A DNA stretch of 16,318 bases from Deltaproteobacteria bacterium (GTDB lineage: Bacteria; SAR324; NAC60-12): NCBI GenBank assembly GCA_038150265.1, contig JAYOTF010000049.1:362-16679 (forward strand), written 5' to 3'. The position numbers were made by a program, and so were the translations under genes. Below, in pieces: positions 1,008 through 15,148 of the stretch; position 1 is the stretch's first letter; each line of letters opens with the position of its first letter. A model generated the notes under the pieces. That model did no database searches. It saw nothing but the letters and a program-made list of their open reading frames with translations, and had not been told where the DNA came from.

Positions 1008-2348
1008 TTACATCCGGTCGCCAAACATGTGCTGCATGCGGGCCTCGCATTCGGCAAGGGAGGTTTGCTCCTCCATGTCCTGGTTGAGGAAGTCCATGAT
1101 CATGGAGTGCTTGGAGAGGGAGTAGTCGATCTCCGGGTTGCTTCCCTGCACGTAGGCTCCGATGTTGATCAGGTCTTCGGCCTCTCGGTAGGTCGCCAGG
1201 GTCCGGCGGAAGATCTGCGAGAGCTGCCGGAAGTTCCGAGACACCACATCGACCATCACCCGGCTTGAGGAGACCAGCAGGTCAATGGCCGGGTAGATGC
1301 CCTTTGCCGCCAGGTCGCGGCTCAAGACAATGTGCCCATCCACAATGGAGCGAACGGCGTCCCCGATCGGGTCGTTGGTGTCGTCTCCTTCCACCAGCAC
1401 CGTGTAGAATCCCGTGATGGAGCCCGGACCTTCGTGGGTCCCAGCGCGCTCCAGCAGGCTGGGAAGCAGCGCAAACACGGAAGGCGGATAGCCCTTGGTC
1501 GTGGGGGGCTCTCCGGCTGCCAGCCCAATCTCGCGCTGAGCCATGGCAAAACGCGTGAGCGAGTCCATGGAGAGCAACACATCCAGCCCCTCTCCCCGGA
1601 AGTACTCGGCAATCGCTGTGGCCACATACGCGCCACGCATCCGCAGCAGCGGGGGCTGATCTGACGTGGCAACCACGACGACGGAGCGGCGCAGGCCGTC
1701 TTCGCCAAGGTTGTCTTCAATGAATTCCCGGACCTCCTTGCCCCGTTCGCCAATGAGGGAGATGACGTTGACGTCGGCATCGGTGTAGCGGGCCATCATG
1801 CCGAGCAGCACCGACTTGCCCACTCCGGAGCCGGCCATGATGCCCACGCGCTGCCCGCGTCCGCAGGTGAGGGTGGAGTTGATGGCCCGGATGCCCACGT
1901 CCAGCGGACTCTTGATGCGCTCCCGCTTGAGGGGGTTGATCACCTGCGGGTACAGGGGCATCTCATGGTTGGTGACCAGCTCACCGAGGTCATCAATCGG
2001 ACGCATCAGGGGGTCAAACACCCGTCCCAGCATTTGCTCACCGACCGGAACCATCGCCGGACGCTCCTCCGCAACGACCCGGCAGTGGGGGCCAATGCCC
2101 TGGGCGTGGCTCAGGGGCATGACGAGAATGCGTTCGTTGCGCAGGCCAACGACCTCGGCCGGGGTCGCCTGATTGGTGCGAGGGTTGAGGATGCGGCACA
2201 AGGTGCCAACGGAACAGCCGGGGTTGGTGGACTCGACCATGTGGCCGATCACCTGAGTGACGCGTCCTTCCTTGCGGAGGGTGGGGCTGTTGACAACGGC
2301 GTCGTGGTAGTCTTGCAGAGCAGAGTAAATCGGGAGGCCGTGGCTCAT
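1008..2348 (-). CDS. fliI: Flagellar export ATPase FliI
   Basis: Walker A GSGVGKS, LIGERGKEVREF, ATSDQPPLLR, MDSLTRFAMAQREIGLAAGEPPTTKGYPPS, SIVDGHIVLSRDLA, GAYVQGSNPEID. The start overlaps the fliH stop (ATGA). Confidence 0.96.
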   Translation of the reverse strand: MSHGLPIYSALQDYHDAVVNSPTLRKEGRVTQVIGHMVESTNPGCSVGTLCRILNPRTNQATPAEVVGLRNERILVMPLSHAQGIGPHCRVVAEERPAMVPVGEQMLGRVFDPLMRPIDDLGELVTNHEMPLYPQVINPLKRERIKSPLDVGIRAINSTLTCGRGQRVGIMAGSGVGKSVLLGMMARYTDADVNVISLIGERGKEVREFIEDNLGEDGLRRSVVVVATSDQPPLLRMRGAYVATAIAEYFRGEGLDVLLSMDSLTRFAMAQREIGLAAGEPPTTKGYPPSVFALLPSLLERAGTHEGPGSITGFYTVLVEGDDTNDPIGDAVRSIVDGHIVLSRDLAAKGIYPAIDLLVSSSRVMVDVVSRNFRQLSQIFRRTLATYREAEDLINIGAYVQGSNPEIDYSLSKHSMIMDFLNQDMEEQTSLAECEARMQHMFGDRM

Positions 2349-3391
2349 GCCGGCTCCTCGGTGCCTTCAGCAGGCGCGGCCTCGGGAGCTGAAGCAACAG
2401 GGGGCCCAAAATCGTAGGCGTCCATGTCCACGTCATTCATCCGGGCGTAGCGCTCCAGCAGCTTTTGACTGAGCAGGTTCTCCAGCTCTTCAAACTGGTG
2501 CTGGAAGGAGTGGTTGACCACTTCTTCATCCGACTCAATGGAGACTGCTCCGGGCTGGATGTCCGGGGAGGCCTTGAGCGTGAGGGCCTGCTCCTCGTCG
2601 AGGAACCGCTCCAGGTCCGCGCCGCTTTTTTGCAGGTAATCGTAGCAGTCCGGATGCAGGTACACGATGATCTTCCCCTTTGAGTGAAGCTCCTTGAGGG
2701 CCGCTTGGGTGATGCCGATGATGACATCCGGATTGACCTGCAGCTCTTCAATGACCACCTTCTTGGCAATCACGACAGAGAGCTGAACCAACTCCTGCTC
2801 GGCCTGAAAGCGGACCAGGTGCCGAAGGCCCCGGAGCTGCTCCAGAACCTGCTCGGACTGCTCGGCAATGGGGGCAGATTCCTGATAGCGCTGCTCCATG
2901 CCGTCCAGGCGCCCTTGCTCAAATCCTTCTCCATAAGCCTGGTCCTTGATGGCCTGAACCTCGGCTTCTGCCTCACGGAGCATCCGGACCCGTTCCTCTT
3001 CCGCCTGCACCCGCAACTGTTCCGCTTCCTGACGAAGCCGCCGGGCTTTCTGGTTTTCCGCCTCTGCCTGCGCAACCAGTTGCTGGCGATACAGCTCTGC
3101 GCCTTCCCGGACCGTGGCGGCGTAACTTTCGGCGTTGGTCAGCAGGCTGTCTTCACGGGTGAAGCTTTCGTTGGAAAAGGTCGTGGAAAGCGCCACCTTC
3201 TGGTCGTCGGTCAGCTGCTGTTCCTGGGGGATCAGCGACTCCGGATCCAGCTCGTGGGAGGTCAGATCAAGGGGGCTGAAGTCGTTGGCGTGCGGAGCGG
3301 TGCCCGGCGCCTCGGCTTCCCGGGCCTCGGCTTCGGCAGACAGGTCGGTGAAGTCCCGGAGGTGGAATGGCTCAAATGCGTCGCCCGGCAT
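2345..3391 (-). CDS. fliH: Flagellar assembly protein FliH (start at ATG 3391 preferred; GTG 3436 possible)
   Basis: Coiled coil followed by AYGEGFEQGRLDG (GxxxG repeats), IAKKVVIEEL, VYLHPD and DIQPGAVSIES. Lies immediately upstream of fliI. Confidence 0.88.
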   Translation of the reverse strand: MPGDAFEPFHLRDFTDLSAEAEAREAEAPGTAPHANDFSPLDLTSHELDPESLIPQEQQLTDDQKVALSTTFSNESFTREDSLLTNAESYAATVREGAELYRQQLVAQAEAENQKARRLRQEAEQLRVQAEEERVRMLREAEAEVQAIKDQAYGEGFEQGRLDGMEQRYQESAPIAEQSEQVLEQLRGLRHLVRFQAEQELVQLSVVIAKKVVIEELQVNPDVIIGITQAALKELHSKGKIIVYLHPDCYDYLQKSGADLERFLDEEQALTLKASPDIQPGAVSIESDEEVVNHSFQHQFEELENLLSQKLLERYARMNDVDMDAYDFGPPVASAPEAAPAEGTEEPA

Positions 3392-3427
3392 GAGGAAAGA
3401 TGGGGGAAGGCGTTCAGGAAAGCGACA

Positions 3428-3455
3428 GGAGCCCACCGGCGGTTCCGGAGGCTCC
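3428..3455. other. Intergenic hairpin between fliF and fliH
   Basis: GGAGCC-CA-CCGG-CGGTT-CCGG-A-GGCTCC imperfect inverted repeat. Confidence 0.45.
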
Positions 3456-3466
3456 TACCGAGGGTC

Positions 3467-5077
3467 TTACTTTTCGCGGAGCCAGGTGCGGACCAGCGAA
3501 GCGGTCTTGAGGGCGTCCTGCTTGGCGATCTCGATGATCTTGTCGCGTGGTGGAATGCCGGATTCGCGTTCGGTCGGAATCTCGAGTTCCTCGCCTTCCA
3601 GCTCGCCAATGGTGGCAGGCAGGCCCATGAGGAGGTCGAGGTCGGCAGGCTTGGCGCTGAGGCGCTGCACCATCGGCCGGATGACCAGCATGATGAGGGC
3701 CATGACGGCGATGCCGAGGGCCACGTAGCGGACGATGTCGAGGATGAACTGGTTCCGGACCCGGGTCCGCTCGATTTCGGCGGCCTTGTCTTCTTCCACC
3801 GCTTTTCCGAACGGCATGTTGCCCACAAAGACTTCGTCGCCACGAGACTCGTTGAAGCCAATGGCTGCACGGACCAGGCTGACGATGATTTCTTTCTCGG
3901 CTTCCGTCCACTTGATGTTGTCACGGCCGATGAAGTTGCCGTTTTCATCCAGAATCTGCGGGCGCTTGTTGTCCAGCAGCACCGAGACACTCAGGCGCAG
4001 CACTTCGCCAATGGCGGCTTCCTTGAGGACCTCACGTCGGCTGGTTTCAAAGTTCCGGGTGGAGTTCTTCTTGGTGAATTCCGAAACCGTCGCGGCTTCT
4101 CGGCCTGTGGCTTCCGGCAGGTTGGTGGTGACACCTGCGGGTCCAACGGGAACGGAGCGGGAGCCCGTGGAGGCTTCATCGACCAACTGCTCACTGACAA
4201 CACTGGTCTGGTCCGGATCGATCAGCTGCTCCTTGATCGTCTCCTTGTCAAACCGCATGGAGGCCGAGACGATGACCTTGACGCGTCCGTCTCCAACGAT
4301 TTCTTCCAGCTGGTTCCGGATCTTCAGTTCCAGCTCCTGCTCAAAGCGGCGCTTGTAGGCGTAGTTGTCGCCAATGTTGCCGCCCATGCTTTCGTCGGTG
4401 ATGCCGCGGCTCAGCAGCTGTCCCGTCTGGTCGGTGACGCGGACGCTCTTGATGTCCATGCCTTCAACAGCTCCAGCAACCAAGTGCACAATCGTTTCCA
4501 CCTGATTCCGGGAGATGCTGCCGCTGTTCAGGTTCAGGGCCACTGCGGCAGTGGGCTGTTCCTGAGCATTAGAGAAGAGGCTCTTCTGCGGGATGGCGAG
4601 GGAGACCTTCGCGTTGCGGACCATGTCGAGCTGGCTGATCAAGCGGGCCAGTTCGCCTTCCTGGGCCACCCGAAACTTCACCTGCTGCTGGAACTCCGTC
4701 TCTCCCAGGCTGGGAGCGGCAAAGAGGTCCATGAAGCCCACGCCACTTCCAGGCAGAACCTTTTGCTGGGCCAGGGTCAGGCGAGCCTGGTCGACCATCT
4801 GCGGGTCCACCATGATGGTGCCGCCTCCGGGGGCAAGCAGGTACGGAATCTGGCTTTCCTGGAGCTTGGTGACGATTTTTGCCGCGTCCGCTGGATCCAG
4901 ATTGGAGTAAAGAGGAGCCCAGGTGGGTCGATTAGCCACCACAATCAGGCTGACCATGCCGATCAAAATGACGGCGAGGGCGCCGAGGATGGTGATTCGC
5001 TTGCCGAGACTGAGCGACCCAAAGAAGTCCTGAAACTGTAGCCGGACGTCTTGGATGAGGTTGGCTTGGTCGGCCAT
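3467..5077 (-). CDS. fliF: Flagellar MS-ring protein FliF (start MADQANL at 5077 preferred; ORF extends to 5116)
   Basis: N-terminal TM helix, LYSNLDPADAAKIV, GETEFQQQV..AQEGELARLI, IVHLVAGAVEG, VTDQTGQLL, GVTTNLP, RLSVSVLLD, AAIGFNESRGD, second TM helix and C-terminal ASLVRTWL. Confidence 0.95.
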   Translation of the reverse strand: MADQANLIQDVRLQFQDFFGSLSLGKRITILGALAVILIGMVSLIVVANRPTWAPLYSNLDPADAAKIVTKLQESQIPYLLAPGGGTIMVDPQMVDQARLTLAQQKVLPGSGVGFMDLFAAPSLGETEFQQQVKFRVAQEGELARLISQLDMVRNAKVSLAIPQKSLFSNAQEQPTAAVALNLNSGSISRNQVETIVHLVAGAVEGMDIKSVRVTDQTGQLLSRGITDESMGGNIGDNYAYKRRFEQELELKIRNQLEEIVGDGRVKVIVSASMRFDKETIKEQLIDPDQTSVVSEQLVDEASTGSRSVPVGPAGVTTNLPEATGREAATVSEFTKKNSTRNFETSRREVLKEAAIGEVLRLSVSVLLDNKRPQILDENGNFIGRDNIKWTEAEKEIIVSLVRAAIGFNESRGDEVFVGNMPFGKAVEEDKAAEIERTRVRNQFILDIVRYVALGIAVMALIMLVIRPMVQRLSAKPADLDLLMGLPATIGELEGEELEIPTERESGIPPRDKIIEIAKQDALKTASLVRTWLREK

Positions 5078-5245
5078 GGTTAATGAGCTTGGGTGTGAAC
5101 GAGTTGGGGCATCCATTCCCGGTTCCGCCTCTCAGCGGCCTCAAGGAAATCCTGCTTTCCGGTGCGACGCAACAAAATTGAATAACACAAACGAACTTGC
5201 CTGAAAAGGCGGAATTTCAAATGACCTTTTCTCCAAGCGACATCA

Positions 5246-5391: not shown

Positions 5392-6582
5392 TTAGCGGAC
5401 CCGAACCGTGGTGAAGGCCTTGTTCTGAACTTCCAGCTCCTTGTAGGCACCAGAGGCTTCACCCACCGAGGTGAATTCGACATCGGTGGCCCCGACGTAG
5501 TCGATGTCGCCGCCGTTTGCCAGAATCTTCAGCGCCTTGCTCAATTCGCCAGCACCGATCTTTTCACCCGGAGCGTTGGCGACCTCCATGACCTTGCCCG
5601 CAAGCGCAGCCCGGTCGGCGGAACCTGCAGCCTGCATGGCCAGCACCATCAGCGCTGCCGCGTCATAGGACTCCCCGCGGTACGGACCATTGGGGTCCAG
5701 GCCGTTGGCTTGAGCGAAGTCGGCAAACCTGGCGGCACTCGGAGAATCCGAGCCCGGGAGGGTTCCGAAGGATCCGGTCAGGTCGCCGTCCAGGTTCTGG
5801 AGCAAGGACTCACCGACCATGCCGTCTCCGAAGATGAACTGGTCGAAGGCACCGGCATCAATGGATGCCTGGATCATGCGAATTCCACCCTGATCCACGT
5901 AGCCGAACACGGCGAGGACGTCGCCTCCGGAAGCCGAGAGAGACGCGACTTCGGCCGAGTAGTCCGCCTTGCCGTCTTCATGCGGCACGCTGGCCGTGAT
6001 GGTTCCTCCGAGTGCCTCGAAGGCGCTGCTGAAGGAGTTGGCCAGGCCCTTGCCGTAGTCGTTGTTGGTGTAGGTCACGGCGACGTTCTTGACGCCCCGC
6101 TCCATGGTCACCTGAGCCAGCACCTGTCCTTGACGGGCGTCAGAGGGAGCCGTCCGGAAGAAGTAGCCGCGGTCGTCCAGGTCCGTCAGAGCCGGAGAGG
6201 TGGCAGAGGGAGAGATCATGGTCACCCCGTTGGGAACGCCCACGTTGTTGGCCACAGCAATGGTGACCCCGGAGCAGTCGGCTCCCATCAGGCCCACGAC
6301 CTTGTCTGCCGTGACCAAGCGCTCAGCGGCAGCGGTGGCGGCCGCGGCGTCGATGCAGGTGGAGTCGGCCCGGGTCACGTTGATCTTTTGTCCACCCAGG
6401 AAGGCACCAGAGTCAGAAGCCTCCTTGAAGGCCAGCTCTGCCGAGGCGGCCATGCCGGGGGTCAGGGACTCGATGGGGCCGGTGAAGCCGAGGATGATGC
6501 CCATTTGGACGTCAGCAGCAGCCAGGGTGGGAACCAGTGCGGTCGCAAGGATGGCCGCGGAACGAAGCAGTTTTGCTTTCAT
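5392..6582 (-). CDS. ABC transporter substrate-binding protein, branched-chain amino acid (LivJ/LivK-like, type 1 PBP) family
   Basis: Signal peptide MKAKLLRSAAILATALVPTLAAA-D with GGAGAG RBS. Motifs GADCSGVT, ISPSATSPALT, FFRTAPSDARQG, NNDYGKGLA and YDAAAL. Confidence 0.9.
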   Translation of the reverse strand: MKAKLLRSAAILATALVPTLAAADVQMGIILGFTGPIESLTPGMAASAELAFKEASDSGAFLGGQKINVTRADSTCIDAAAATAAAERLVTADKVVGLMGADCSGVTIAVANNVGVPNGVTMISPSATSPALTDLDDRGYFFRTAPSDARQGQVLAQVTMERGVKNVAVTYTNNDYGKGLANSFSSAFEALGGTITASVPHEDGKADYSAEVASLSASGGDVLAVFGYVDQGGIRMIQASIDAGAFDQFIFGDGMVGESLLQNLDGDLTGSFGTLPGSDSPSAARFADFAQANGLDPNGPYRGESYDAAALMVLAMQAAGSADRAALAGKVMEVANAPGEKIGAGELSKALKILANGGDIDYVGATDVEFTSVGEASGAYKELEVQNKAFTTVRVR

Positions 6583-6785
6583 TGCATTCTCTCCAGAGGA
6601 AAAAAGGATCAAGGGCTCGGCGCTTTCTTGATGAGGCCAGGAAAGCAGGGGCCCAGTCAGGGGGGACCGTCCATGAAAACGACGGTCAAGTCTCTCATGA
6701 ATTTCTGTTTTTGAAAAGAACCACAATTCAAAACGTCTGAACTTCAGTGGCCCGGTGAAAGACGGTGGCTTCCGGAAAAGGTGGC

Positions 6786-7661
6786 TCAGTTTGGGGAGCG
6801 CAGTCGGGTGATCAGGCTGGAGGTGTCCCAGCGTCCGTGGCCTTCTGCCTGAAGCTGGGCGTAAAACTGGTCAACGAGCGCGGTAACCGGGAGTTGGGCG
6901 CCGTTGGCTTTGGCCTCCTCAAGGGCGATGCCGAGGTCCTTGCGCATCCAGTCGATGGCAAAGCCATAGTCGAACTTTCCGGTGTTCATGGTGGCGGAGC
7001 GGTTTTCCATCTGCCAGGACTGTGCGGCTCCCTTTGAGATGGTTTCAATGACCGCGTCCACATCGAGTCCGGACGCCTGCGCAAAGTGAATGCCCTCGGA
7101 GAGCCCCTGAAGGAGTCCGGCAATGCAGATCTGGTTGACCATCTTGGTGAGCTGTCCGTATCCGCTGGGACCCAGCAACTGGACCCGCTGGGCGTAGGCC
7201 TGAATGATGGGCTCCGCTTGGGCAAAGGCCTCCGTGTCTCCCCCACACATGACCGTCAGGATGCCCTTTTCCGCTCCAGACTGTCCGCCGGAGATGGGAG
7301 CATCAATGAACTGGAAGCCCCGCTGCTCCGCTTCTGCGGAAAGCTCGCGTGCCACTTGGGCCGAGGCCGTGGTATGATCGACAAAAATGCTGCCGGGGGC
7401 CATGGACGCAAAGGCGCCGTTGGGGCCGAGGGTCACGTCTCGGAGGTCGTTGTCGTTGCCCACACAGGCCATCACCACCCGCTTGCCTGCTGCGGCTTCA
7501 GCCGGTGTGGGCGCCGTGCTTCCGGAGTAGGCGGTTGCCCACTGCTGGGCTTTTGCTGCCGTCCGGTTGTACACTGTCACTTGGTGTCCGGCTTGTGCCA
7601 GATGTCCGGCCATGGGGTATCCCATGACGCCTAACCCGAGGAACGCCACCGCTTCCGACAT
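6786..7661 (-). CDS. NAD(P)-dependent beta-hydroxyacid dehydrogenase (3-hydroxyisobutyrate dehydrogenase / tartronate semialdehyde reductase family)
   Basis: AFLGLGVMGYPMAGHL, VYNRT, FIDAPISGG, GQLTKMVNQ (catalytic Lys) and MRKDLGIAL. GGAG RBS before ATG 7661. Confidence 0.92.
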   Translation of the reverse strand: MSEAVAFLGLGVMGYPMAGHLAQAGHQVTVYNRTAAKAQQWATAYSGSTAPTPAEAAAGKRVVMACVGNDNDLRDVTLGPNGAFASMAPGSIFVDHTTASAQVARELSAEAEQRGFQFIDAPISGGQSGAEKGILTVMCGGDTEAFAQAEPIIQAYAQRVQLLGPSGYGQLTKMVNQICIAGLLQGLSEGIHFAQASGLDVDAVIETISKGAAQSWQMENRSATMNTGKFDYGFAIDWMRKDLGIALEEAKANGAQLPVTALVDQFYAQLQAEGHGRWDTSSLITRLRSPN

Positions 7662-7805
7662 GCTTGCTCCTGTGATGAAGATGAAGGTCAAGAAAACGAA
7701 TCGAACCCAGCATTCTATGAATCCTGTTGAAGAGACTCAAGCTTCATCCGTATTTCGGCAATTCGGAGCGGTCCGTTGCGGGCGGTGGGAGCAAGGGGAG
7801 GGCGC

Positions 7806-8492
7806 ATGAGCCCCTCGGTTCTCGCGGATGTCATCATTGCCGGCGCCGGAGGAGGTTCCCGGATGCAGGCCGGGCGCAACAAGCTGCTGCTGCCTCTGGG
7901 AGCCTCAACGGTGCTGGAACAGACGGTGGCAACCTTCCACGCCCACCCCCGGATTGCGCGCATTCTGGTGACGGCCTCAGAGGTGGACTGGAGCGACTTT
8001 GAGCAGCGGCTGGCGCGGTTTGCCGTGACGCTGGTGCCAGGAGGCGCCCGCCGGCAGGACTCGGTGCATGAGGGGTTGGCGGTGCTGGCGCAGGCTCCGG
8101 AGGCGTCCCCCCTGGTGCTGGTGCAGGATGGCGCCCGTCCCTTCACTTCGGCAGCACTGATTTCCCGGGTGCTGGACGCTCTGGAAACGCAGGATGCCGT
8201 GATTCCGGTGGTGCCGCTGGTGGATACGATTCGGCGGATCAACGCCTCCGGAACCCGTGTGGAAGACCGGGCGGAGCTGTTTGCGGTCCAGACTCCCCAG
8301 GGCGCCCGCCGGGCGCTGCTGTGGCAGGCGTCTCAGCAGGCGCAGGTCGAAGCCTGGGAGGTGACCGATGATGCGTCGCTGATGGAGCGCGCCGGCTGGA
8401 AGGTGGAGAGCGTTCCGGGAGAGCGAGAGAACCTGAAGCTGACTCTTCCGGAAGACTACACCTTTGCCCAGTGGCGGGTGCAGCAGGCCTGA
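7806..8492 (+). CDS. ispD: 2-C-methyl-D-erythritol 4-phosphate cytidylyltransferase
   Basis: AGGGSRM...NKLLL, GGARRQDSV, VLVQDGARPF, DTIR, QTPQG, TDDASL and NLKLT. GGAGGG RBS before ATG 7806. Confidence 0.9.
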   Translation: MSPSVLADVIIAGAGGGSRMQAGRNKLLLPLGASTVLEQTVATFHAHPRIARILVTASEVDWSDFEQRLARFAVTLVPGGARRQDSVHEGLAVLAQAPEASPLVLVQDGARPFTSAALISRVLDALETQDAVIPVVPLVDTIRRINASGTRVEDRAELFAVQTPQGARRALLWQASQQAQVEAWEVTDDASLMERAGWKVESVPGERENLKLTLPEDYTFAQWRVQQA

Positions 8493-8493
8493 G

Positions 8494-9285
8494 CTAGAGG
8501 TGGGCCGCCATTGCCTGGGCCAACCGCTGAGCCTCCTGACCTGCGGCTTCGGCAAAGTCCTCTCCGGAGCTGGCGTAAAGGATGCTCCGGGAGGCATTGA
8601 TCAGGCAGGGAATGGAGGTGCCGTCTGTGGCCTCCCTGAGGGTTGCCTCCAGCGAGCCGCCCTGGGCTCCGACTCCTGGAATCAGGTACGGCATGGGGCC
8701 GGTGATGGTCCGGATGGCGCCAATGGCTTCCGGACGGGTGGCGCCCACGACGAGTCCGGCGTTCTGGTGCTCGTTCCACTCCCGGACCTTCCGGGCGACG
8801 GCGAGGTGCAGGTCTGGCAACTGAAAGTCCTGGGCCCCGGGGTTGGAGGTGAGGCAGAGGACGAACACGCCCCGGTCCCGGTACTCGAGGAAGGGCTGGA
8901 CGGAGTCGGCTCCCATGTACGGAGCCACCGTGACGGCATGGCAGCCCCATCCTTCAAAAATGGCCCGGGCGTACATGGCGGAGGAGGTGCCAATGTCTCC
9001 GCGCTTCGCATCAGCGATGATGGGCAGGCCTTCCGGGACGGCGGCCAGCACTTCCTGAAGAACCTCGGTGCCGACAGGTCCGAGCGCTTCAAAGAAGGCA
9101 AAGTTCGGCTTCACGGCGGCAGCAAACGGGCTGGTCGTCGCCAGGATCTGCTTGAGGAAGGCCACCAGGCCCTCTGGGGTTCGGGGGAGGGACTCCGGAA
9201 GGCGCTCAAGCTGCGGGTCGAGCCCAACACAGAGCAGGGAGCGGGCCTGGGAGACGCGTTGCTGAAGCAGAGCAGAGAAGGTCAT
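8494..9285 (-). CDS. pyrF: Orotidine-5'-phosphate decarboxylase
   Basis: LCVGLDP, KPNFAFFE, DAKRGDIGTS, LTSNPG, GLVVGAT, LIPGVGAQGG and NASRSILYA. Confidence 0.96.
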   Translation of the reverse strand: MTFSALLQQRVSQARSLLCVGLDPQLERLPESLPRTPEGLVAFLKQILATTSPFAAAVKPNFAFFEALGPVGTEVLQEVLAAVPEGLPIIADAKRGDIGTSSAMYARAIFEGWGCHAVTVAPYMGADSVQPFLEYRDRGVFVLCLTSNPGAQDFQLPDLHLAVARKVREWNEHQNAGLVVGATRPEAIGAIRTITGPMPYLIPGVGAQGGSLEATLREATDGTSIPCLINASRSILYASSGEDFAEAAGQEAQRLAQAMAAHL

Positions 9286-9332
9286 GGGGGTAAAAAATAT
9301 TTGGTGTTATGCGGATGAACCTTTAAGATACC

Positions 9333-9938
9333 TCAAAACAAGGACATCTGTTGCGCTTCCGGACGTTTGGCCTCAGTGGCCCAGTTCAACTGGACCCGCT
9401 TGATGCCGCTCCGGGATTCGTAATCGAGGTGTCCGTGTTCAACCGCGTGGAGGTACACGTCTCGGGTTACCTGGACATCCATCTTGCAGTATTCGATGAT
9501 TTTGTCGATTTTACCTTCTTTGTACCACTGCAAGGCCTGCAGGCCATCGGCAGACTTTCCGGTCCCCAGTGTGGGCCGCGCAATGGATTCCAGCTTGAGC
9601 CGGTGACCGAGCTCCTTCTTGAGTTCGGTCAGCATGTCCATGTTGGGGCGTCCAACGAGCTCGGTGTAGAGCTGCTGGCGTTGCTGGCGGTCGGCAAAGC
9701 GTGCGCCCGCGAGGACGCGGTAGTCAAACCCGATGTGGTTGAAGCCCACCACAAGGTCAGCCCGGCGGCAGTGATCGATCAGGGCCTGAACCTGGTGGTC
9801 GAGGTAAACCGTGAAGTCGGCTTCTTTTGAGTCCCAGATGACGCCAACCGACAGGCCCATGTCTTCAATGTTGCTCCAGCCTCCCACCTCATCAGCGGAG
9901 TACTTGGTTTCCAGGTCGAAGTAAACGATGCGTTCCAT
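9333..9938 (-). CDS. RNase H-like DEDDy 3'-5' exonuclease-domain protein (YprB/RNase_H_2-like)
   Basis: ExoI YFDLET, ExoII GFNHIGFD, ExoIII YCKMDV, plus GKSADGLQALQWYKEG. C-terminus is QMSLF. Confidence 0.8.
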   Translation of the reverse strand: MERIVYFDLETKYSADEVGGWSNIEDMGLSVGVIWDSKEADFTVYLDHQVQALIDHCRRADLVVGFNHIGFDYRVLAGARFADRQQRQQLYTELVGRPNMDMLTELKKELGHRLKLESIARPTLGTGKSADGLQALQWYKEGKIDKIIEYCKMDVQVTRDVYLHAVEHGHLDYESRSGIKRVQLNWATEAKRPEAQQMSLF

Positions 9939-9964
9939 GAACTTTCTCGGGCGTTAGAGGACGG

Positions 9965-10672
9965 ATGGTGGATTATTATGAACGACTGGGGGTGTCGCCA
10001 GAGGCCACGCTGGAGGTGATCCGGCGAGCGTATCGGCAAGCGGCCAAGGCGGAACACCCGGACCTGCATCCTCAGGATTCAGAGGCGCAGCGGCAGCAGC
10101 GGCAGTTGCGGTTTGTGCAAATCACCCAAGCGTATGAAGTCCTGAGTGACTCGGCCAAGCGTGCCGCATACGACCAGCAGCGTCGGGCCAGGCAAAGCCA
10201 ACAAAGTCACCAGAAAACCCAAGCAGGTTCAAGTTCTTCCCAACAACGGCCCCGGAGGCCTGCGTCTGGAACCACGGCTTCCTTCACCAGCCGGCCCCGG
10301 CGCCCGCGGCAGGAGGACATCCCCTCTCCGGAGGAGGCGCTGGAGGACCTGCTGCAGGAACTGGGGTCGCTTTTTGGTGACCTGAGGGGGCAGTCGAAGG
10401 ACCCCCTTGGCTTGCTTGTCCGCGGGGCAAAGCGTATTTATCAGGAGGTTGAGGACTGGCTCGACTCGTGGGAAAAGGACCTGAATGCAAGTGGATCGCG
10501 TCCGTCGGGCTCGACCCTGCATTCCTTTCAGGAAGAAATTGAAGAAGAACTGGCGCGCCTCAAGCGTCAGCGCCGCGCTCAACCGGGCGCCCGCACTCAG
10601 CGAAAGGCCCCTTCAGCCTCGTCTGAGATTGATCAGGAACTGGAACGCCTGAAAAAGCAGTATCAACGCTAA
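9965..10672 (+). CDS. J-domain (DnaJ class C) protein
   Basis: DYYERLGV...IRRAYR...HPD...ITQAYEVLSDSAKRAAYD. No G/F region or zinc finger. GAGGA RBS. Confidence 0.88.
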   Translation: MVDYYERLGVSPEATLEVIRRAYRQAAKAEHPDLHPQDSEAQRQQRQLRFVQITQAYEVLSDSAKRAAYDQQRRARQSQQSHQKTQAGSSSSQQRPRRPASGTTASFTSRPRRPRQEDIPSPEEALEDLLQELGSLFGDLRGQSKDPLGLLVRGAKRIYQEVEDWLDSWEKDLNASGSRPSGSTLHSFQEEIEEELARLKRQRRAQPGARTQRKAPSASSEIDQELERLKKQYQR

Positions 10673-10682
10673 CCGGAAAAAC

Positions 10683-11639
10683 ATGCCCCATTCCCCTGCT
10701 TCCCCGCTTCCCCCGCCGGGTAAAGTGGCCGTCATGATCCCTTGCCTGAATGAGGAAATCACCATTGGCAAGGTCATTCAGGACTTCCAGGCCGTGTTGC
10801 CTGACGCCGAGATTGTGGTCTTTGACAACAACAGCACCGACCGGACGGCAGAAATTGCCACCGGCCTGGGCGCTCGGGTGATTCCGGAGCGCCGCCCCGG
10901 GAAGGGCTATGTGGTGTCTTCGATGTTCCGGAAGATTGAGGCGGATTACTACGTGATGGTCGATGGCGACGACACCTACTCTGCCGAGCACGCCCTGCAC
11001 CTGCTGGAACCTGTGGCCAAGGGAAGCGCGGACATGAGCGTTGCGACGCGTTTGGAGGAGTACCACAACGAGTCGTTTCGGCCACTGCATGTCTTTGGAA
11101 ACAACCTGGTCAAGAACCTCGTCAACTGGATTTTCCAGAGCAACCTCAATGACATCATGTCTGGATACCGCGTGTTCAACCGAGATCTGGTGAAAACGGT
11201 TCCAGTGCTGTCGTCCGGGTTTGAAGTGGAAACCGAGATGACGATTCGGGTGCTGGACTACGGATTTTCCATTGCCGAAGTACCGGTGCCGTATCGGGAA
11301 CGTCCGGAGGGCAGCTTCTCGAAGCTTCACACCTTCCGAGACGGCTATCGGGTGCTGTCCACGATTGCCAACATTGCCAAGGCGTACAAACCGTTTACCT
11401 TCTTTGGGGGGCTGGGGCTGTTCTTTGCGGTGCTGGGAGGAATCAGTGGCACCTGGGTGGTGTTTGATTACCTGGAGGATGAATACGTCAACAAGGTGCC
11501 AACGGCGATTCTTGCCTCAGGGCTGATGCTGCTGGCGTTTGGAAGCGTGGGCGTGGGCGCCGTGCTGCACACGCTCAATCATCGGTTTCGGGAAACCAAT
11601 CGGCTCATGCAGCAGGTCTTGCGTGGACGGAGGGACTAG
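10683..11639 (+). CDS. GT2 glycosyltransferase (polyprenol-phosphate glycosyltransferase-like) with two C-terminal TM helices
   Basis: IPCLNEE, VFDNNSTDRT, GKGY, DGDDTY (DxD), DIMSGYR, GFEVETE, YRERPEGSFSKL and RDG. Confidence 0.9.
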   Translation: MPHSPASPLPPPGKVAVMIPCLNEEITIGKVIQDFQAVLPDAEIVVFDNNSTDRTAEIATGLGARVIPERRPGKGYVVSSMFRKIEADYYVMVDGDDTYSAEHALHLLEPVAKGSADMSVATRLEEYHNESFRPLHVFGNNLVKNLVNWIFQSNLNDIMSGYRVFNRDLVKTVPVLSSGFEVETEMTIRVLDYGFSIAEVPVPYRERPEGSFSKLHTFRDGYRVLSTIANIAKAYKPFTFFGGLGLFFAVLGGISGTWVVFDYLEDEYVNKVPTAILASGLMLLAFGSVGVGAVLHTLNHRFRETNRLMQQVLRGRRD

Positions 11640-12277
11640 AAATCCCAGTGAAAGGCGAGGCGCATGCCGTCATCGGTCGGGAGCACGTTCAGGCCGGTGG
11701 CAGGACGCGGAGCATTCGGATCCCAGACGGAGCGGGTGCCCAGCATGGTTCCGAGAATGCCCCCCAGGACCGTTGAGGTTCCAATGGTCCGGAACTGGTT
11801 CCGGGTGTTGGTTTCTTGCTGAATGAAGGCAAACCAGGTCCCGATCATGAGGCCCGTGCCGGCACCGTAGCTGATGTTGGCAATGGCATTCTGACGCTCC
11901 TCGGCCAGCAGCTGTTGCCGATTGGCCACATCGAAGCGGATCCGGTTTTCCGTGGAGTCTGAAAACTTGGTCTCGTCAATGTACTGCTGCTCCTGATCCG
12001 TTGGAGCCTGAAAGGGATCCTGCTGCTGCTGAAGAAAGGGGTCCTCAAATGCGCCTCCTGAAGGCGGCGGAGCCATCGGGTCCTGGAAGTCGCTCTGGTA
12101 GGGATCCATGAAGTCAGACCCATAGGGATCTTCTGCGGCAAAGGGGTCGTCCTGAGCAAAGGGATCCGAGTAGAGGTCCTGGGCGTGCAGCCCCGCAGGA
12201 AGGCAGAAGGCACCCAGGCAGAGGAGGCCCGCTGGGAGGACGAGGCGGAGTCGAGATCGAAGAAATTGAAGAATCAC
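11636..12277 (-). CDS. Hypothetical exported protein with acidic DP[F/Y] repeats, glycine-zipper hairpin and terminal Phe (start uncertain: GTG 12277 or ATG 12331)
   Basis: Signal peptide ending LHA-Q, seven DP(F/Y/M) motifs, YGAGTGLMIG and LGGILGTMLG, ending LAFHWDF. Confidence 0.7.
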   Translation of the reverse strand: MILQFLRSRLRLVLPAGLLCLGAFCLPAGLHAQDLYSDPFAQDDPFAAEDPYGSDFMDPYQSDFQDPMAPPPSGGAFEDPFLQQQQDPFQAPTDQEQQYIDETKFSDSTENRIRFDVANRQQLLAEERQNAIANISYGAGTGLMIGTWFAFIQQETNTRNQFRTIGTSTVLGGILGTMLGTRSVWDPNAPRPATGLNVLPTDDGMRLAFHWDF

Positions 12278-12336
12278 GTGCGTCTTGAAGTTCGAGGATT
12301 CATGTTTGCATGGAAACAATGCAATTCTCATTCACC

Positions 12337-12360
12337 GCTGAAGCAATTCGACGCTTCAGC
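12337..12360. promoter_or_regulatory. Perfect inverted repeat in the divergent promoter region (possible operator)
   Basis: GCTGAAGC-N8-GCTTCAGC in the AT-richer gap between divergent genes. Confidence 0.4.
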
Positions 12361-12378
12361 CTGCATTTTTGAGAAAAT

Positions 12379-12843
12379 ATGACAGAGAAACGCATCCGGA
12401 ACAAGCACATGCATATCCCTTTCCTTCGTCGCCTTTCCCTTTTTTTCATTGCGACCGTCCTCAGCCTGTCGGTGTTCCAGGCTTCCGCATCGGCTCAGGA
12501 AACAGGGCCACTGATGATGAAGCAGGAGTTGGGGTACACCCTGGGAGGAGGCGTGGCCGGAGTGGGCATGGGCGTCCTGGTCTGGTTTACTGATCCGCTC
12601 AATCCCAGTGTGACCCTCCGGGGGAACATCAAGGATGGCTTTGTCGTGGGAAGCACGCTGGGCGCCCTGTTTGGGTTCTACCTGTTGCAGAATGCGGCCA
12701 TCTTTCCCAACGAAGCCGCTCCAACGAACATTGACCAACTTTTGGGAAGAGAAGAGGATGTCGGTTGGCCCGCGACCCAGGCTCGCTCAGCTACTGCCCA
12801 AGGCCTTCGACTGAACATCCCCGTATGGCAATTCCGCTTTTAA
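12379..12843 (+). CDS. Hypothetical exported glycine-zipper protein with terminal Phe (start 12379 or 12409)
   Basis: Signal peptide ending ASA-Q, LGGGVAGVGMG and VGSTLGALFG, ending VWQFRF. Confidence 0.72.
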   Translation: MTEKRIRNKHMHIPFLRRLSLFFIATVLSLSVFQASASAQETGPLMMKQELGYTLGGGVAGVGMGVLVWFTDPLNPSVTLRGNIKDGFVVGSTLGALFGFYLLQNAAIFPNEAAPTNIDQLLGREEDVGWPATQARSATAQGLRLNIPVWQFRF

Positions 12844-12863
12844 CCTGCTTCCGTTCTGATTCC

Positions 12864-13301
12864 ATGCGCCCATTCTTGCGCAAGTCGCTGGTTGTTGTCC
12901 TCCTTTCATTCGGCTTGCTGGCCAGCCCCGTTCATGCCCAGACGCCGGGCGCCACCGGAGCCGCCAAGCCTCCGGTGATGCAGTCCATCTTCTGGAACAC
13001 CCTGTGGGGGTCCGGATGGGGAGCCACCATGGGGCTGTCGTATCAGTTGGTGTCTGGGGTCAACTTCCGGGAGTCAGTGGTCACTGGCGCCACCGTGGGA
13101 GGCCTTCTGGGGTACGGCCTTGGGATCTATGCCATCGTGAATGGGGTCACCTTTGACCAGCGGTTTCTGCTGAAGCTGCCGACCCCTCAGTTTGGTCCGC
13201 CTCAGGCGTCCAACGCGCCGCTACCCGACGCACTGTACACGCGCCACCAGAAACCGGACTCCAGCCGCTGGTCCACGACCCTCTTCAACTTCCGATTCTA
13301 A
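12864..13301 (+). CDS. Hypothetical exported glycine-zipper protein with terminal Phe
   Basis: ATG 12864 MRPFLRK, signal peptide ending VHA-Q, WGSGWGATMG and TGATVGGLLGYGLG, ending LFNFRF. Confidence 0.72.
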   Translation: MRPFLRKSLVVVLLSFGLLASPVHAQTPGATGAAKPPVMQSIFWNTLWGSGWGATMGLSYQLVSGVNFRESVVTGATVGGLLGYGLGIYAIVNGVTFDQRFLLKLPTPQFGPPQASNAPLPDALYTRHQKPDSSRWSTTLFNFRF

Positions 13302-13304
13302 CCC

Positions 13305-13895
13305 ATGTCCGTTTCCGGACACGACTCACTCCTTTCCCTGCTGCGTCAGAACCTGAAAGAGGTGCTGACGCTCATCCTCCTGGGAGGCCTGCTGGGGGCA
13401 GGAACCGCCTACTTCTACACCGGTGAACTGATGGAAGCGCCGCTTCCGGAAGAACAGGGAACGCTGGTGCTGACCCAGATCCTCATTCACGATTTTCAGA
13501 AGGCGTCTCCGCGCTGGGAGCTTCGGGGAGAGCGGGCCGTGGTGCTGGAGGATTCGCAGCGCATGCGCATCGAAGGCGTGACGATTGACGTGTTTGAGGC
13601 TGGCACAGAGCCCATGCAGGAGCCGGTGGTGGACCTGAAGGTCTCTGCGGAGCAGGGGCTGGTCGAGTGGCGCTCCAACCGGATCACCCTACAGGGCAAG
13701 GTGGTGGTGCAGCAGGTTCAGGGACCGGTCGTCTGGACCGAGACGGCTGTGTACGACATCACCAATGAGTTCCTGAACCTGCCGAAGCCGGTTCAGGTGG
13801 AGTATGAGGGCAGCCTGCTGACCGGAACCTCTCTGACCTACAGCCGTCCTCAAAACCTGGTTTCCATCAAACAGCCCGTCACTTCCGTGCGCTAA
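13305..13895 (+). CDS. lptC: LptC-like LPS export periplasmic beta-jellyroll protein
   Basis: Single N-terminal TM helix, then WELRGERA, VSAEQG, ITLQGKVVV, TETAVYD and LTGTSLTY, matching the LptC/OstA strand pattern. Confidence 0.65.
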   Translation: MSVSGHDSLLSLLRQNLKEVLTLILLGGLLGAGTAYFYTGELMEAPLPEEQGTLVLTQILIHDFQKASPRWELRGERAVVLEDSQRMRIEGVTIDVFEAGTEPMQEPVVDLKVSAEQGLVEWRSNRITLQGKVVVQQVQGPVVWTETAVYDITNEFLNLPKPVQVEYEGSLLTGTSLTYSRPQNLVSIKQPVTSVR

Positions 13896-13932: not shown

Positions 13933-15009
13933 ATGTCTGGCTTTTCATCGGTTGAACTCCTTCAGCAGCTCCGTCATGCCGTCTTGGCGCTGGATGCCCA
14001 GGGACGGGTCCAGCAGGTCAATGAAACAACGGCCCAGCTGTTTCATCAGGAGCCGGAACGCTTGCAGGGGCTGTTCTTCCCCGAGTTGTTTCCTCAGGAC
14101 CCTCGGCTGGTGGCCCGGATGCAACAGGTGCTGGAGCAGGGCAAGGAATTCCGCCTCAGCGCTGAGCGACTGGAGACGCCCCCTTTTCAGGGGAAGATTG
14201 CCGAGTTGGTGCTGGGGCCCCTCTATGACGCCGATGGGGTTCAGCAGGGGGCACTGCTGACGCTCCTGGAGACGACCTCTCTTGCGGAAGCCCGACACAA
14301 GGAGCAGGAAGAACAATTTGCCCACTCCCTGGGGATGCTGGTGGCGTCTCTTGCCCATGAGGTCCAGAATCCGCTTGGGGGGGTGAAGGGCATGCTGCAG
14401 CTCCATGAGCGCGAGCTGGAAGCCGCCGGCCTGAACACCGACAGCGTGGAGATGATGCTGGGGGAGTTGGGACGCGTGGAGCGGCTGCTCCGGCACCTGC
14501 TGTTTCTGTCACACCCCATGCCGCTGAGTCCCTCCTCATTCAACATCCACGAGCTGCTCAGCACCATCATTGAGTTTGAGCGCAACATCAACGCCGCTCT
14601 GGCCTTCCGGACGCGCTTTGATCCGTCGCTTCCCGAGATCACGGGAGATCGGGACAAGCTGCATCAGGTCTTTCTCAACCTGATCCGCAATGCGGCCCAG
14701 GCGTCTCCTGAAGCAGGGACCGTGACGATTCGGACCGAGTACTGCCAGCCCTGGGAGCTGGCTGGAACAAACCTGGATCCAACCTTGGCGTACCTGCAGG
14801 TCCTTGTGGAAGATGAGGGCTCGGGCGTGGCTCCGGAACATCAGGACCGTCTGTTTCAGCCCCTTTTCACGACCAAGCCTGAGGGAAACGGCCTCGGGCT
14901 CTCGATTTCGCAGCGGATCCTTCAGGCGCACAGCGGCCTGCTGCGCTACCGGCCCCGGCCCGAAGGCGGAGCCTGCTTTCAGGCCTTTCTGCCCCGGAAT
15001 CGAATGTGA
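13933..15009 (+). CDS. Cytoplasmic PAS sensor histidine kinase, NtrB/GlnL-like
   Basis: N-terminal PAS domain, H box LAHEVQNPLGG, FDPSLPEI, N box QVFLNLIRNAAQA, G1 DEGSGV, F box LFQPLFTTK and G2 GNGLGLS. No TM segments. Confidence 0.88.
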   Translation: MSGFSSVELLQQLRHAVLALDAQGRVQQVNETTAQLFHQEPERLQGLFFPELFPQDPRLVARMQQVLEQGKEFRLSAERLETPPFQGKIAELVLGPLYDADGVQQGALLTLLETTSLAEARHKEQEEQFAHSLGMLVASLAHEVQNPLGGVKGMLQLHERELEAAGLNTDSVEMMLGELGRVERLLRHLLFLSHPMPLSPSSFNIHELLSTIIEFERNINAALAFRTRFDPSLPEITGDRDKLHQVFLNLIRNAAQASPEAGTVTIRTEYCQPWELAGTNLDPTLAYLQVLVEDEGSGVAPEHQDRLFQPLFTTKPEGNGLGLSISQRILQAHSGLLRYRPRPEGGACFQAFLPRNRM

Positions 15010-15024
15010 CGGGACAAAAAGAGC

Positions 15025-15054
15025 TTGCGTGTCTTCGGGATCTCTCTTAAAAAT
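15025..15054 (+). promoter_or_regulatory. Possible sigma70 promoter of tRNA-His
   Basis: TTGCGT-17 nt-TAAAAA(T), with an upstream A tract, ending about 18 nt before the tRNA. Confidence 0.4.
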
Positions 15055-15071
15055 AGCTGTTTGCACTGGAT

Positions 15072-15148
15072 GGCGAAAGTAGCTCAGCTGGTAGAGCACC
15101 GGATTGTGATTCCGGTGGTCGCGGGTTCAAGTCCCGTCTTTCGCCCCA
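15072..15148 (+). tRNA. tRNA-His (GTG)
   Basis: G-1 plus acceptor stem GCGAAAG/CTTTCGC, D arm AGCTCAGCTGGTAGAGC, anticodon arm CCGGA-TTGTGAT-TCCGG, T loop GGTTCAAGTCC, discriminator C73 and encoded CCA. Confidence 0.97.

Follow-up and report, generated by a model that had tools for sequence, protein, structure and literature searches.

Three adjacent genes encoding small, putatively exported proteins (A, B and C) and located immediately upstream of lptC have been analyzed in a DNA stretch of 16,318 nucleotides (nt) from a Deltaproteobacteria bacterium of the SAR324 lineage (GenBank assembly GCA_038150265.1, contig JAYOTF010000049.1, positions 362 to 16,679 of the forward strand), which is referred to here as the window. 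The three genes are real and conserved, and their products appear, by sequence comparison, to form an undescribed family lying outside all Pfam, NCBIfam and PDB families, with a signature that consists of a predicted A|Q cleavage site, two GxxxGxxxG glycine zippers and a terminal phenylalanine. As a tentative reading, held with somewhat less than even confidence, A, B and C may be non-lipidated, SlyB/YiaD-like helical hairpins of the outer membrane whose C-terminal strand engages a barrel machine, probably BamA, with B and C forming hetero-oligomers and with their expression coupled to that of lptC.

Gene A (11636-12331, minus strand, 231 amino acids) is divergent from gene B (12379-12843, plus strand, 154 amino acids), with an intergenic region of 47 nt between them. 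Gene C (12864-13301, plus strand, 145 amino acids) is found 20 nt after B, and its stop is separated by a 3-nt gap from the ATG of lptC (13305-13895, plus strand, 196 amino acids). The lptC product scored above the cut-offs of both Pfam LptC (PF06835, E 1.8e-13, 50.9 bits with a cut-off of 21) and TIGR04409 (46.7 bits with a cut-off of 38), and contains an N-terminal membrane anchor at residues 20-38. Coordinates and scores thus bear out the 3-nt distance between C and an lptC-like gene that had been noticed in a previous reading of this DNA made without database searches (the sequence-only reading). A longer frame for C with a TTG start at 12765 was considered and discarded, because the orthologues and the database gene call begin at the ATG. 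At E <= 1e-3 a total of 411 homologues of A and 347 of B were found, the named ones carrying the titles of 'SAR324 cluster bacterium' or 'Deltaproteobacteria bacterium' proteins from metagenome-assembled genomes (MAGs), and a word-indexed search retrieved only 4 homologues of C. Complete copies of A, B and C in related genomes were recovered by alignment-derived hidden Markov models (HMMs) at E <= 1e-37. The possibility that these genes were shadow open reading frames (ORFs) was excluded because of the strong amino-acid conservation over 28 related loci.

These 28 loci were obtained when species-representative genomes were scanned once with the B alignment, a search limited to close relatives because B-specific peptide patterns were used; their titles correspond to SAR324, Lambdaproteobacteria, Deltaproteobacteria, proteobacterial or unclassified MAGs, and all their ORFs were annotated by HMM and phmmer. 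The common gene order was exonuclease(-), J-domain(+), family 2 glycosyltransferase (GT2)(+), A(-), B(+), C(+) and lptC(+), and the order A(-), B, C, lptC was held in 28/28 loci as far as the contigs extend. Gene A was present in all 28 loci (the L015 copy is truncated by the contig end and the L013 copy lies in two ORFs), as was B, by which the loci were found; C was present in 27 (L007 stops just past B, and the L010 copy is cut by the contig end), and lptC was located after C in 26, the contig ends cutting L007 and L010. The clustering with lptC that the sequence-only reading had proposed to check in homologues is therefore kept in the 28 loci as the contigs allow. The gene downstream of lptC is variable among loci and often convergent, so that B-C-lptC, with neither lptA nor lptB, makes up the conserved transcription unit, which ends at lptC.

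The precursor of A has a predicted signal peptide at about residues 1-50 (cut LHA|Q), with a possible internal GTG start, followed by a pair of GxxxGxxxG helices (about residues 152-170 and 180-198), a Pro-rich linker and a hairpin-like strand pair with WDF as the last residues; in the A family alignment, G156, G160, G164, G190, G194, G198 and F231 are invariant. Protein B shows a predicted cut at ASA|Q (A39|Q40), a first zipper helix at about residues 51-70, a DPLNP turn, a second zipper helix at about residues 87-106 and a variable linker that leads to the C-terminal VWQFRF, and the alignment of its orthologues contains 35 invariant columns, with F154 conserved in at least 90%. In C, the predicted cut VHA|Q (A25|Q26) is followed by a Trp- and Gly-rich helix 1 (FWNTLWGSGWGATMG), a zipper helix 2, a Pro-rich linker and the C-terminal LFNFRF, F145 being invariant in an alignment of 29 sequences. 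The cleavage contexts, the two Gly-rich hydrophobic segments per protein, the Pro-rich linkers and the three termini (LAFHWDF in A) described in the sequence-only reading could all be read in the translations, which supports its description of three exported-type glycine-zipper proteins; the FLR-containing n-region that it also described is present in the window proteins and is not conserved among their orthologues.

Protein A differs from the other two by an insert of about 100 residues (51-150) between the signal peptide and the first zipper. In the window, this insert is acidic, aromatic-rich and of low complexity, with a net charge of -17 and seven DP[F/Y/M] motifs, and a content of 21-33% Asp plus Glu and 2-7% Lys plus Arg was found in 27 A copies out of the 28 that were scored, the remaining one (L013, split) having yielded just a 20-residue stretch. 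The acidic insert could bind divalent cations or a repeated partner site. The split A orthologue of L013 (5118-5767, minus strand) corresponds to a frameshift or an assembly error. In the AlphaFold2 (AF2) model of A, helices were drawn at 125-173 and 177-203 and strands at 211-219 and 222-230, the latter forming one short hairpin with a predicted local distance difference test (pLDDT) value of about 48-57, and the acidic insert was unstructured. The model of B contained helices at 45-71 and 80-106 and no strand, with the tail 126-154 below pLDDT 50.

Comparison of profiles with hhalign indicates that B and C are clearly paralogues, since the B family aligned with C along its full length, including the C-terminus (96.5%, E 8.1e-10, 129 columns); by BLASTP, both proteins share 28% identity over 102 residues (E 0.005). 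When A was compared with the narrow B or C profiles, no relation was detected beyond the signal peptide, and with a deeper 67-sequence family profile both zipper helices were aligned in register (72%, E 3.3e-5, 63 columns), so that A is a probable distant paralogue of B and C. Hence, the shared architecture at low identity claimed in the sequence-only reading corresponds to true paralogy in the case of B and C, and for A homology is only suggestive.

The family was extended by searching the B+C profile against 1.84 billion cluster representatives, which gave 171 proteins at E <= 1e-3 (104 at E <= 1e-10). The 148 newly listed matches were examined, and 113 of them (120-200 amino acids, Met start) constitute the full-length set. 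In the 67-sequence alignment, which has 23% mean column identity, G57, G61, G91, G95 and F154 are invariant, and A39, Q40, G65, G87 and G99 are at least 90% conserved. A small-x-small|Q site was found in 98 of the 104 members ending in Phe, the next residue being mostly Glu or Asp; thus, mature proteins of the family are predicted to start with Gln in at least 90% of cases, usually as QE or QD, and this +1 Gln corresponds to residue 51 in A, 40 in B and 26 in C. No lipobox Cys was found at or near the cleavage site in the A, B or C family alignments, and a lipoprotein identity was rejected for lack of this lipobox. The spacing between both zippers is tight (17-23 residues), and the tail after zipper 2 ranges from 46 to 79 residues; by column entropy, conservation is lowest in the linker (3.24 bits), compared with 2.37 bits in the last 11 residues. 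According to BLAST, 92 of 105 full-length Phe-ending members are less than 50% identical to any B or C protein of the 28 loci and the window, and the binning of these 105 members assigned 71 to B and 34 to C as the nearest protein; because of these identities and this binning, the B/C split looks old and the family seems to reach beyond the sampled species. A tblastn search of the distant member P0280 against plasmids gave no match.

Conservation of the terminal Phe in homologues, another check proposed in the sequence-only reading, was observed in every complete orthologue from the window and the 28 loci (A, 28 proteins; B, 29; C, 27) and in 104 of the 113 full-length representatives, 108 of which end in an aromatic residue. 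Together with the zipper glycines, which are also invariant or nearly so in the family alignments, this places the shared features well outside what chance would produce. An [aromatic/hydrophobic]-x-[aromatic/hydrophobic] ending was present in 100/113 representatives, and Arg or Lys occupied position -2 in 83/113. In the available part of PMC10945584, the barrel beta-signal is given as polar-x-G-x-x-[aromatic/hydrophobic]-x-[aromatic/hydrophobic], with the last three positions as the core sub-motif, and the part available of PMC3582582 describes a basic residue at -2 as common in outer-membrane proteins (OMPs) of several proteobacteria. Hydrophobic positions of the family alternate at -1, -3 and -5, and then at -6, -8 and -10, which represents a register shift, and Pro is frequent at -7 and -9. 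The C-terminus would fit a docking strand on a tether better than an element of a packed barrel, because a conserved core is followed by the most variable segment, the linker, the last 11 residues are conserved again and the tail has no confident structure.

The location of these proteins was approached through the apparent insertion energy of their helices, estimated as approximate sums of the biological hydrophobicity scale over 19-residue windows (kcal/mol). The two zippers gave +5.0 and +5.6 in A, +3.8 and +5.1 in B, and +7.3 and +3.6 in C, values comparable to those of the zippers of the Escherichia coli outer-membrane lipoprotein SlyB (+4.4 and +8.4), and the inner-membrane helices encoded in the window, which are much more hydrophobic, gave +1.05 (LptC anchor), +1.3 and +0.8 (GT2), and -3.3 and -1.2 (FliF). 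Indirectly, these values suggest that the A, B and C zippers resemble the proven outer-membrane hairpin of SlyB and not Sec stop-transfer anchors. In addition, as a weak link and the only one to a known family, hhalign aligned the family with E. coli YiaD over 61 columns with both zippers in register (68.5%, E 4.6e-5), an alignment in which a composition bias is possible.

With the reality of the genes, their membership of a family, the conservation of the motifs, paralogy, synteny and relative hydrophobicity all shown here, we infer for A, B and C a sequence of cleavage, outer-membrane location, docking on the machinery that assembles beta-barrels (BAM), oligomerization and a functional link to lipopolysaccharide (LPS). 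Signal peptidase I (SPase I) would cut the three precursors at the conserved A|Q site, and their GxxxGxxxG helices would be too weakly hydrophobic for stop-transfer in the inner membrane, allowing the proteins to reach the periplasm. There, the C-terminal hydrophobic-x-hydrophobic-[R/K]-Phe element, carried on the variable Pro-rich linker, would behave as a beta-signal-like strand and would dock by beta-augmentation on an outer-membrane barrel machine, most likely BamA. The helical hairpin would then insert in the outer membrane and zip into homo- or hetero-oligomers (B with C, perhaps A), a use of the hairpin like that of the lipoproteins SlyB, YiaD and YfgH. Co-transcription with lptC would tie the dosage of these proteins to LPS delivery, and their likely role would be the stabilization or assembly of the outer membrane and the LPS layer.

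Several results weigh against this reading. The links of the family with YiaD and with A (about 70% each) may be inflated by the shared Gly-rich composition, and the hhalign comparison of the family with E. coli SlyB was not significant (10.2%). A Foldseek search of both AF2 models against PDB produced 0 matches at E <= 1e-3 and only generic helical hairpins, these models being too weak to give Foldseek matches meaning, and no confident model places A, B or C in the outer membrane, with a mean pLDDT of 55.7 for B and 55.6 for A. The insertion energies are approximate sums of scale values to which no position weighting was applied, and the Kyte-Doolittle values of about 1.3-1.4 for helix 2 of B and helix 2 of C are compatible with retention in the inner membrane. 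Just 2 of the 113 representatives match the full 8-residue consensus polar-x-G-x-x-aromatic-x-aromatic, which was taken from PMC10945584 and not from the OMPs of this lineage. The terminal Phe is not specific either, because the cytoplasmic exonuclease-like neighbor likewise has a final Phe in the 25/25 copies detected in the window and the 28 loci. Finally, the linkage to lptC is known only for the sampled lineage.

A different location is contemplated in the proposal, considered rather doubtful, that these proteins are inner-membrane hairpins (N-out, C-out) with a periplasmic tail of about 50 residues offering its terminal strand to a beta-sheet edge in the periplasm, the obvious candidate being the LptC beta-jellyroll, or LptA, LptF or LptG, with B and C as accessory or regulatory subunits of the Lpt bridge. 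Such a role would suit the conserved B-C-lptC unit (3-nt gap in the window, order present in 26/28 loci), the edge-to-edge assembly of Lpt jellyrolls, the AF2 picture of a helical hairpin with a flexible tail, and helices of about 19-22 residues, which are typical of membrane spans and reach Kyte-Doolittle means of up to 1.4. However, the insertion energies of the zippers (+3.6 to +7.3) are well apart from those of the real inner-membrane helices of the window (-3.3 to +1.3), the Kyte-Doolittle mean of helix 1 of C is only 0.34, and the inter-helix loop lacks the net positive charge usual for cytoplasmic loops; the restriction of the known lptC link to the sampled lineage also counts against this proposal.

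The conserved C-terminus may be interpreted in two other ways. The sequence-only reading had proposed that each protein gives one or two strands to an oligomeric outer-membrane assembly; taken as a beta-barrel like MspA or CsgG, with oligomerization driven by the zippers, this model has the evidence leaning against it and is now regarded as very improbable. The terminal Phe kept in 104/113 members, the two 9-residue strands drawn by AF2 in A (211-219 and 222-230) and the alternating hydrophobic positions (-1, -3, -5 and -6, -8, -10) would fit with it, but the conserved strand region of B and C comprises only about 10 residues, located on the most variable part of the protein, and the low-confidence AF2 models show a helical hairpin as the core, without strands in B and with one short hairpin in A. 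A variable linker and a tail of 46-79 residues are unlike a precisely packed subunit, one long strand would be interrupted by the register shift and by the Pro often found at -7 and -9, the full beta-signal is matched in 2/113 representatives and its last three positions in 100/113, and we know of no barrel with one strand per subunit. Even less probable is that A, B and C are periplasmic or peripheral proteins exposing the C-terminal hydrophobic-x-Phe as a ligand of PDZ proteases of the DegS, DegP or Prc type, acting as envelope-stress signals or decoys: the motif is carried on a flexible tail and resembles the YxF-type OMP termini that activate DegS, but neither the two invariant glycine zippers nor the conserved A|Q maturation site and the conserved lptC operon would be explained by this function. 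The outer-membrane hairpin with a docking strand is kept as the preferred reading. A bolder extension of it, thought to be unlikely, is that A, B and C represent an alpha-helical, non-lipoprotein class of outer-membrane proteins that enters through a minimal beta-signal to BAM and forms hetero-oligomeric rings that organize new LPS together with the Lpt pathway; if true, BAM-assisted insertion of helical hairpins would constitute a third route of outer-membrane biogenesis beside Lol lipoproteins and BAM-folded barrels.

Around the A-B-C-lptC block, the GT2 gene (10683-11639, plus strand; Glycos_transf_2, 1.8e-17) encodes a polyprenyl-phosphate-sugar-synthase-like glycosyltransferase with two C-terminal membrane helices, which scored 247 bits with an AglJ-type model, below its cut-off of 325, and its stop overlaps by 4 nt that of the convergent gene A. 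GT2 was found in 25/28 loci, adjoining A in 22 and placed about 1.7 kb upstream of A in L026-L028; it is cut in L015 and L022, and L024 has no GT2 within 1.8 kb. This gene is a conserved neighbor and part of the envelope context only. Genes for an RNase-H-like 3'-5' exonuclease (C-terminus QQMSLF) and for a J-domain protein that carries a long tail of low complexity (9333-10672) are present in 25/28 loci, in constant order and on the GT2 side of the block, and no functional link to A-B-C-lptC is evident. The divergent A/B intergenic region contains a perfect 8-nt inverted repeat (GCTGAAGC, 8-nt loop, GCTTCAGC; 12337-12360, plus strand), which recurs unchanged in L001 (5959-5982), the closest relative, and was not found as such in L002; it may be a regulatory site or a hairpin of the 5' untranslated region. 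The promoter and terminator scan revealed nothing beyond shuffle expectation.

Downstream of lptC, a soluble PAS-HisKA-HATPase histidine kinase (13933-15009, plus strand) directly follows in the window and in L001 only, and L025 shows a weak histidine-kinase match to a longer ORF (712 amino acids) about 200 nt downstream of lptC; this kinase is outside the conserved B-C-lptC unit. In 14 loci, a convergent ORF of 655-672 amino acids, not present in this window, is located directly after lptC. The L003 copy (7602-9569, minus strand), which was the only one scanned with Pfam, contains Lnb_N, DUF7843 and DUF7840 domains, and the 14/14 copies of this Lnb-like ORF end in an alternating strand with terminal Trp (LALHYFW in L003), so this may be an outer-membrane protein. 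In the sequence P0323, the C-terminal two-thirds of a C-type protein (FAFRF end) run directly into the final 37 residues of the Lnb-like protein, and a chimera that arose in assembly or gene calling at a short FRF/IRF similarity is the probable explanation.

Elsewhere, the window, which lies on a SAR324-type chromosome fragment, includes the flagellar export/basal-body genes for the FliI ATPase, FliH and the FliF M-ring (1008-5116, minus strand), with an opposite ORF of 785 amino acids (2684-5041) that is unmatched in Pfam and probably represents a shadow frame of the GC-rich DNA, a periplasmic binding protein with an AA|AD-type signal site (5392-6726, minus strand), a dehydrogenase, IspD, PyrF and a PhyH-type dioxygenase. 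A tRNA-His (GTG) gene is located at 15073-15148 (plus strand), overlapped by a likely spurious ORF of 187 amino acids (14536-15099, minus strand).

A, B and C may thus represent a new kind of envelope component and define a family missing from Pfam and NCBIfam. To our knowledge, all the helical glycine-zipper proteins of the outer membrane are lipoproteins, and SlyB and YfgH have been recognized only recently as guards of outer-membrane integrity. A lipid-free version with a barrel-type terminal motif raises the question of whether BAM or another barrel machine can recruit non-barrel proteins. We know of no study of the SAR324-type cell envelope, for which these proteins provide three candidate biogenesis factors, fixed in the lptC operon across a major uncultured marine lineage.

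Concerning known families, none was found for A, B or C in Pfam (E <= 0.1) or in NCBIfam, and PDB sequence searches with the B+C and A profiles gave no match below E 0.04, the top ones being antibody chains, aquaporin and prion Gly-rich stretches. None of the sequence-based outcomes that the sequence-only reading had named as contradicting it turned up, because the terminal Phe and the clustering are conserved and Pfam, NCBIfam and PDB revealed no unrelated known family. In 27 distant members, Pfam detected only Gly-zipper models below threshold (Gly-zipper_OmpA, Gly-zipper_Omp, Rick_17kDa_Anti and YMGG; E 0.004-0.95, 9.7-17.3 bits with cut-offs of 24-29). The ESM Atlas contained unnamed clusters only, with the label Gly-zipper_YMGG on 26% of the members of the rank-27 cluster for B and on 21% of one cluster scoring 0.85 for A, in both cases taken as a lead only. 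Literature searches found nothing joining glycine zipper, outer membrane and C-terminal phenylalanine, and nothing relevant on an LptC operon with a glycine zipper or on the SAR324 outer membrane or lipopolysaccharide. Bacteriocin or holin-like peptides were rejected, since Pfam offered nothing but sub-threshold noise for them and these are core genes in a syntenic arrangement, and an LapA-like LPS assembly protein was discarded for lack of a Pfam match.

When compared with known outer-membrane signals, the family resembles the beta-signal recognized by BamA/BamD, as described in the accessible parts of PMC10945584 and PMC3582582, in its terminal Phe, its core ending and the frequent basic residue at -2, but lacks the upstream Gly and polar positions of the barrel signal, and the rest of the protein is predicted to be helical; mature A, B and C, of only about 115-180 residues that the helical hairpin largely takes up, do not reach the eight or more amphipathic strands needed for a single-chain transmembrane barrel, the low-confidence AF2 models showing helices only in B and helices plus two short strands in A. 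According to the part available of a preprint (10.64898/2026.09.25.754295), antibiotics that are lectin-like proteins bring a C-terminal peptide to strand 1 of BamA, and A, B and C are likewise non-barrel proteins whose C-terminal peptide might form a pair with beta-strand 1 of BamA. In contrast to these antibiotics, which are secreted toxins acting on another cell from outside, A, B and C are core, syntenic, housekeeping-type genes that encode membrane hairpins. The Gln predicted at +1 after cleavage in at least 90% of the members recalls the Bacteroidetes Q-rule, in which the Gln after the SPase I cut is cyclized to pyroglutamate, as given in the portions available of PMC5837995 and PMC10653852. 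Unlike that rule, the Gln is here a feature of the family, whereas the other exported protein of the window, the periplasmic binding protein, has AA|AD, and the lineage is not Bacteroidetes.

The closest known kind, judged by sequence features, would be the outer-membrane glycine-zipper lipoproteins (YiaD, SlyB, OsmB, YfgH and Pcp). In the sections available of a preprint (10.64898/2025.12.22.696046), YfgH, SlyB, OsmB and YiaD are described as sharing a glycine zipper with two transmembrane segments, and SlyB as forming 11-mer rings; the part accessible of PMC13067283 reports ring-shaped transmembrane SlyB oligomers in the outer membrane, first found with BamA. The HMMs of these lipoprotein families (PF05433, PF13488, PF13436 and PF13441, and NCBIfam NF053611) were used as a test of membership, and YiaD_Gzip_OmpA (NF053611) was matched by 4/67 members at E <= 1e-3, the best match (5.6e-8, 32.7 bits; the cut-off is 175) lying on the zipper portion of the model. 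A, B and C were not filed among the glycine-zipper lipoproteins because the lipobox and the HMM match both fail. They are like these lipoproteins in being small and putatively exported, in their two adjacent GxxxGxxxG helices joined by a short loop and in the comparably weak hydrophobicity of the zippers. They differ from them in lacking a lipobox Cys, which predicts processing by SPase I instead of the lipoprotein/Lol route, and an OmpA-like or beta-sandwich periplasmic domain, and in having a variable linker followed at the C-terminus by hydrophobic-x-[R/K]-Phe, together with an A|Q site that is conserved and with tandem paralogues in the lptC operon.

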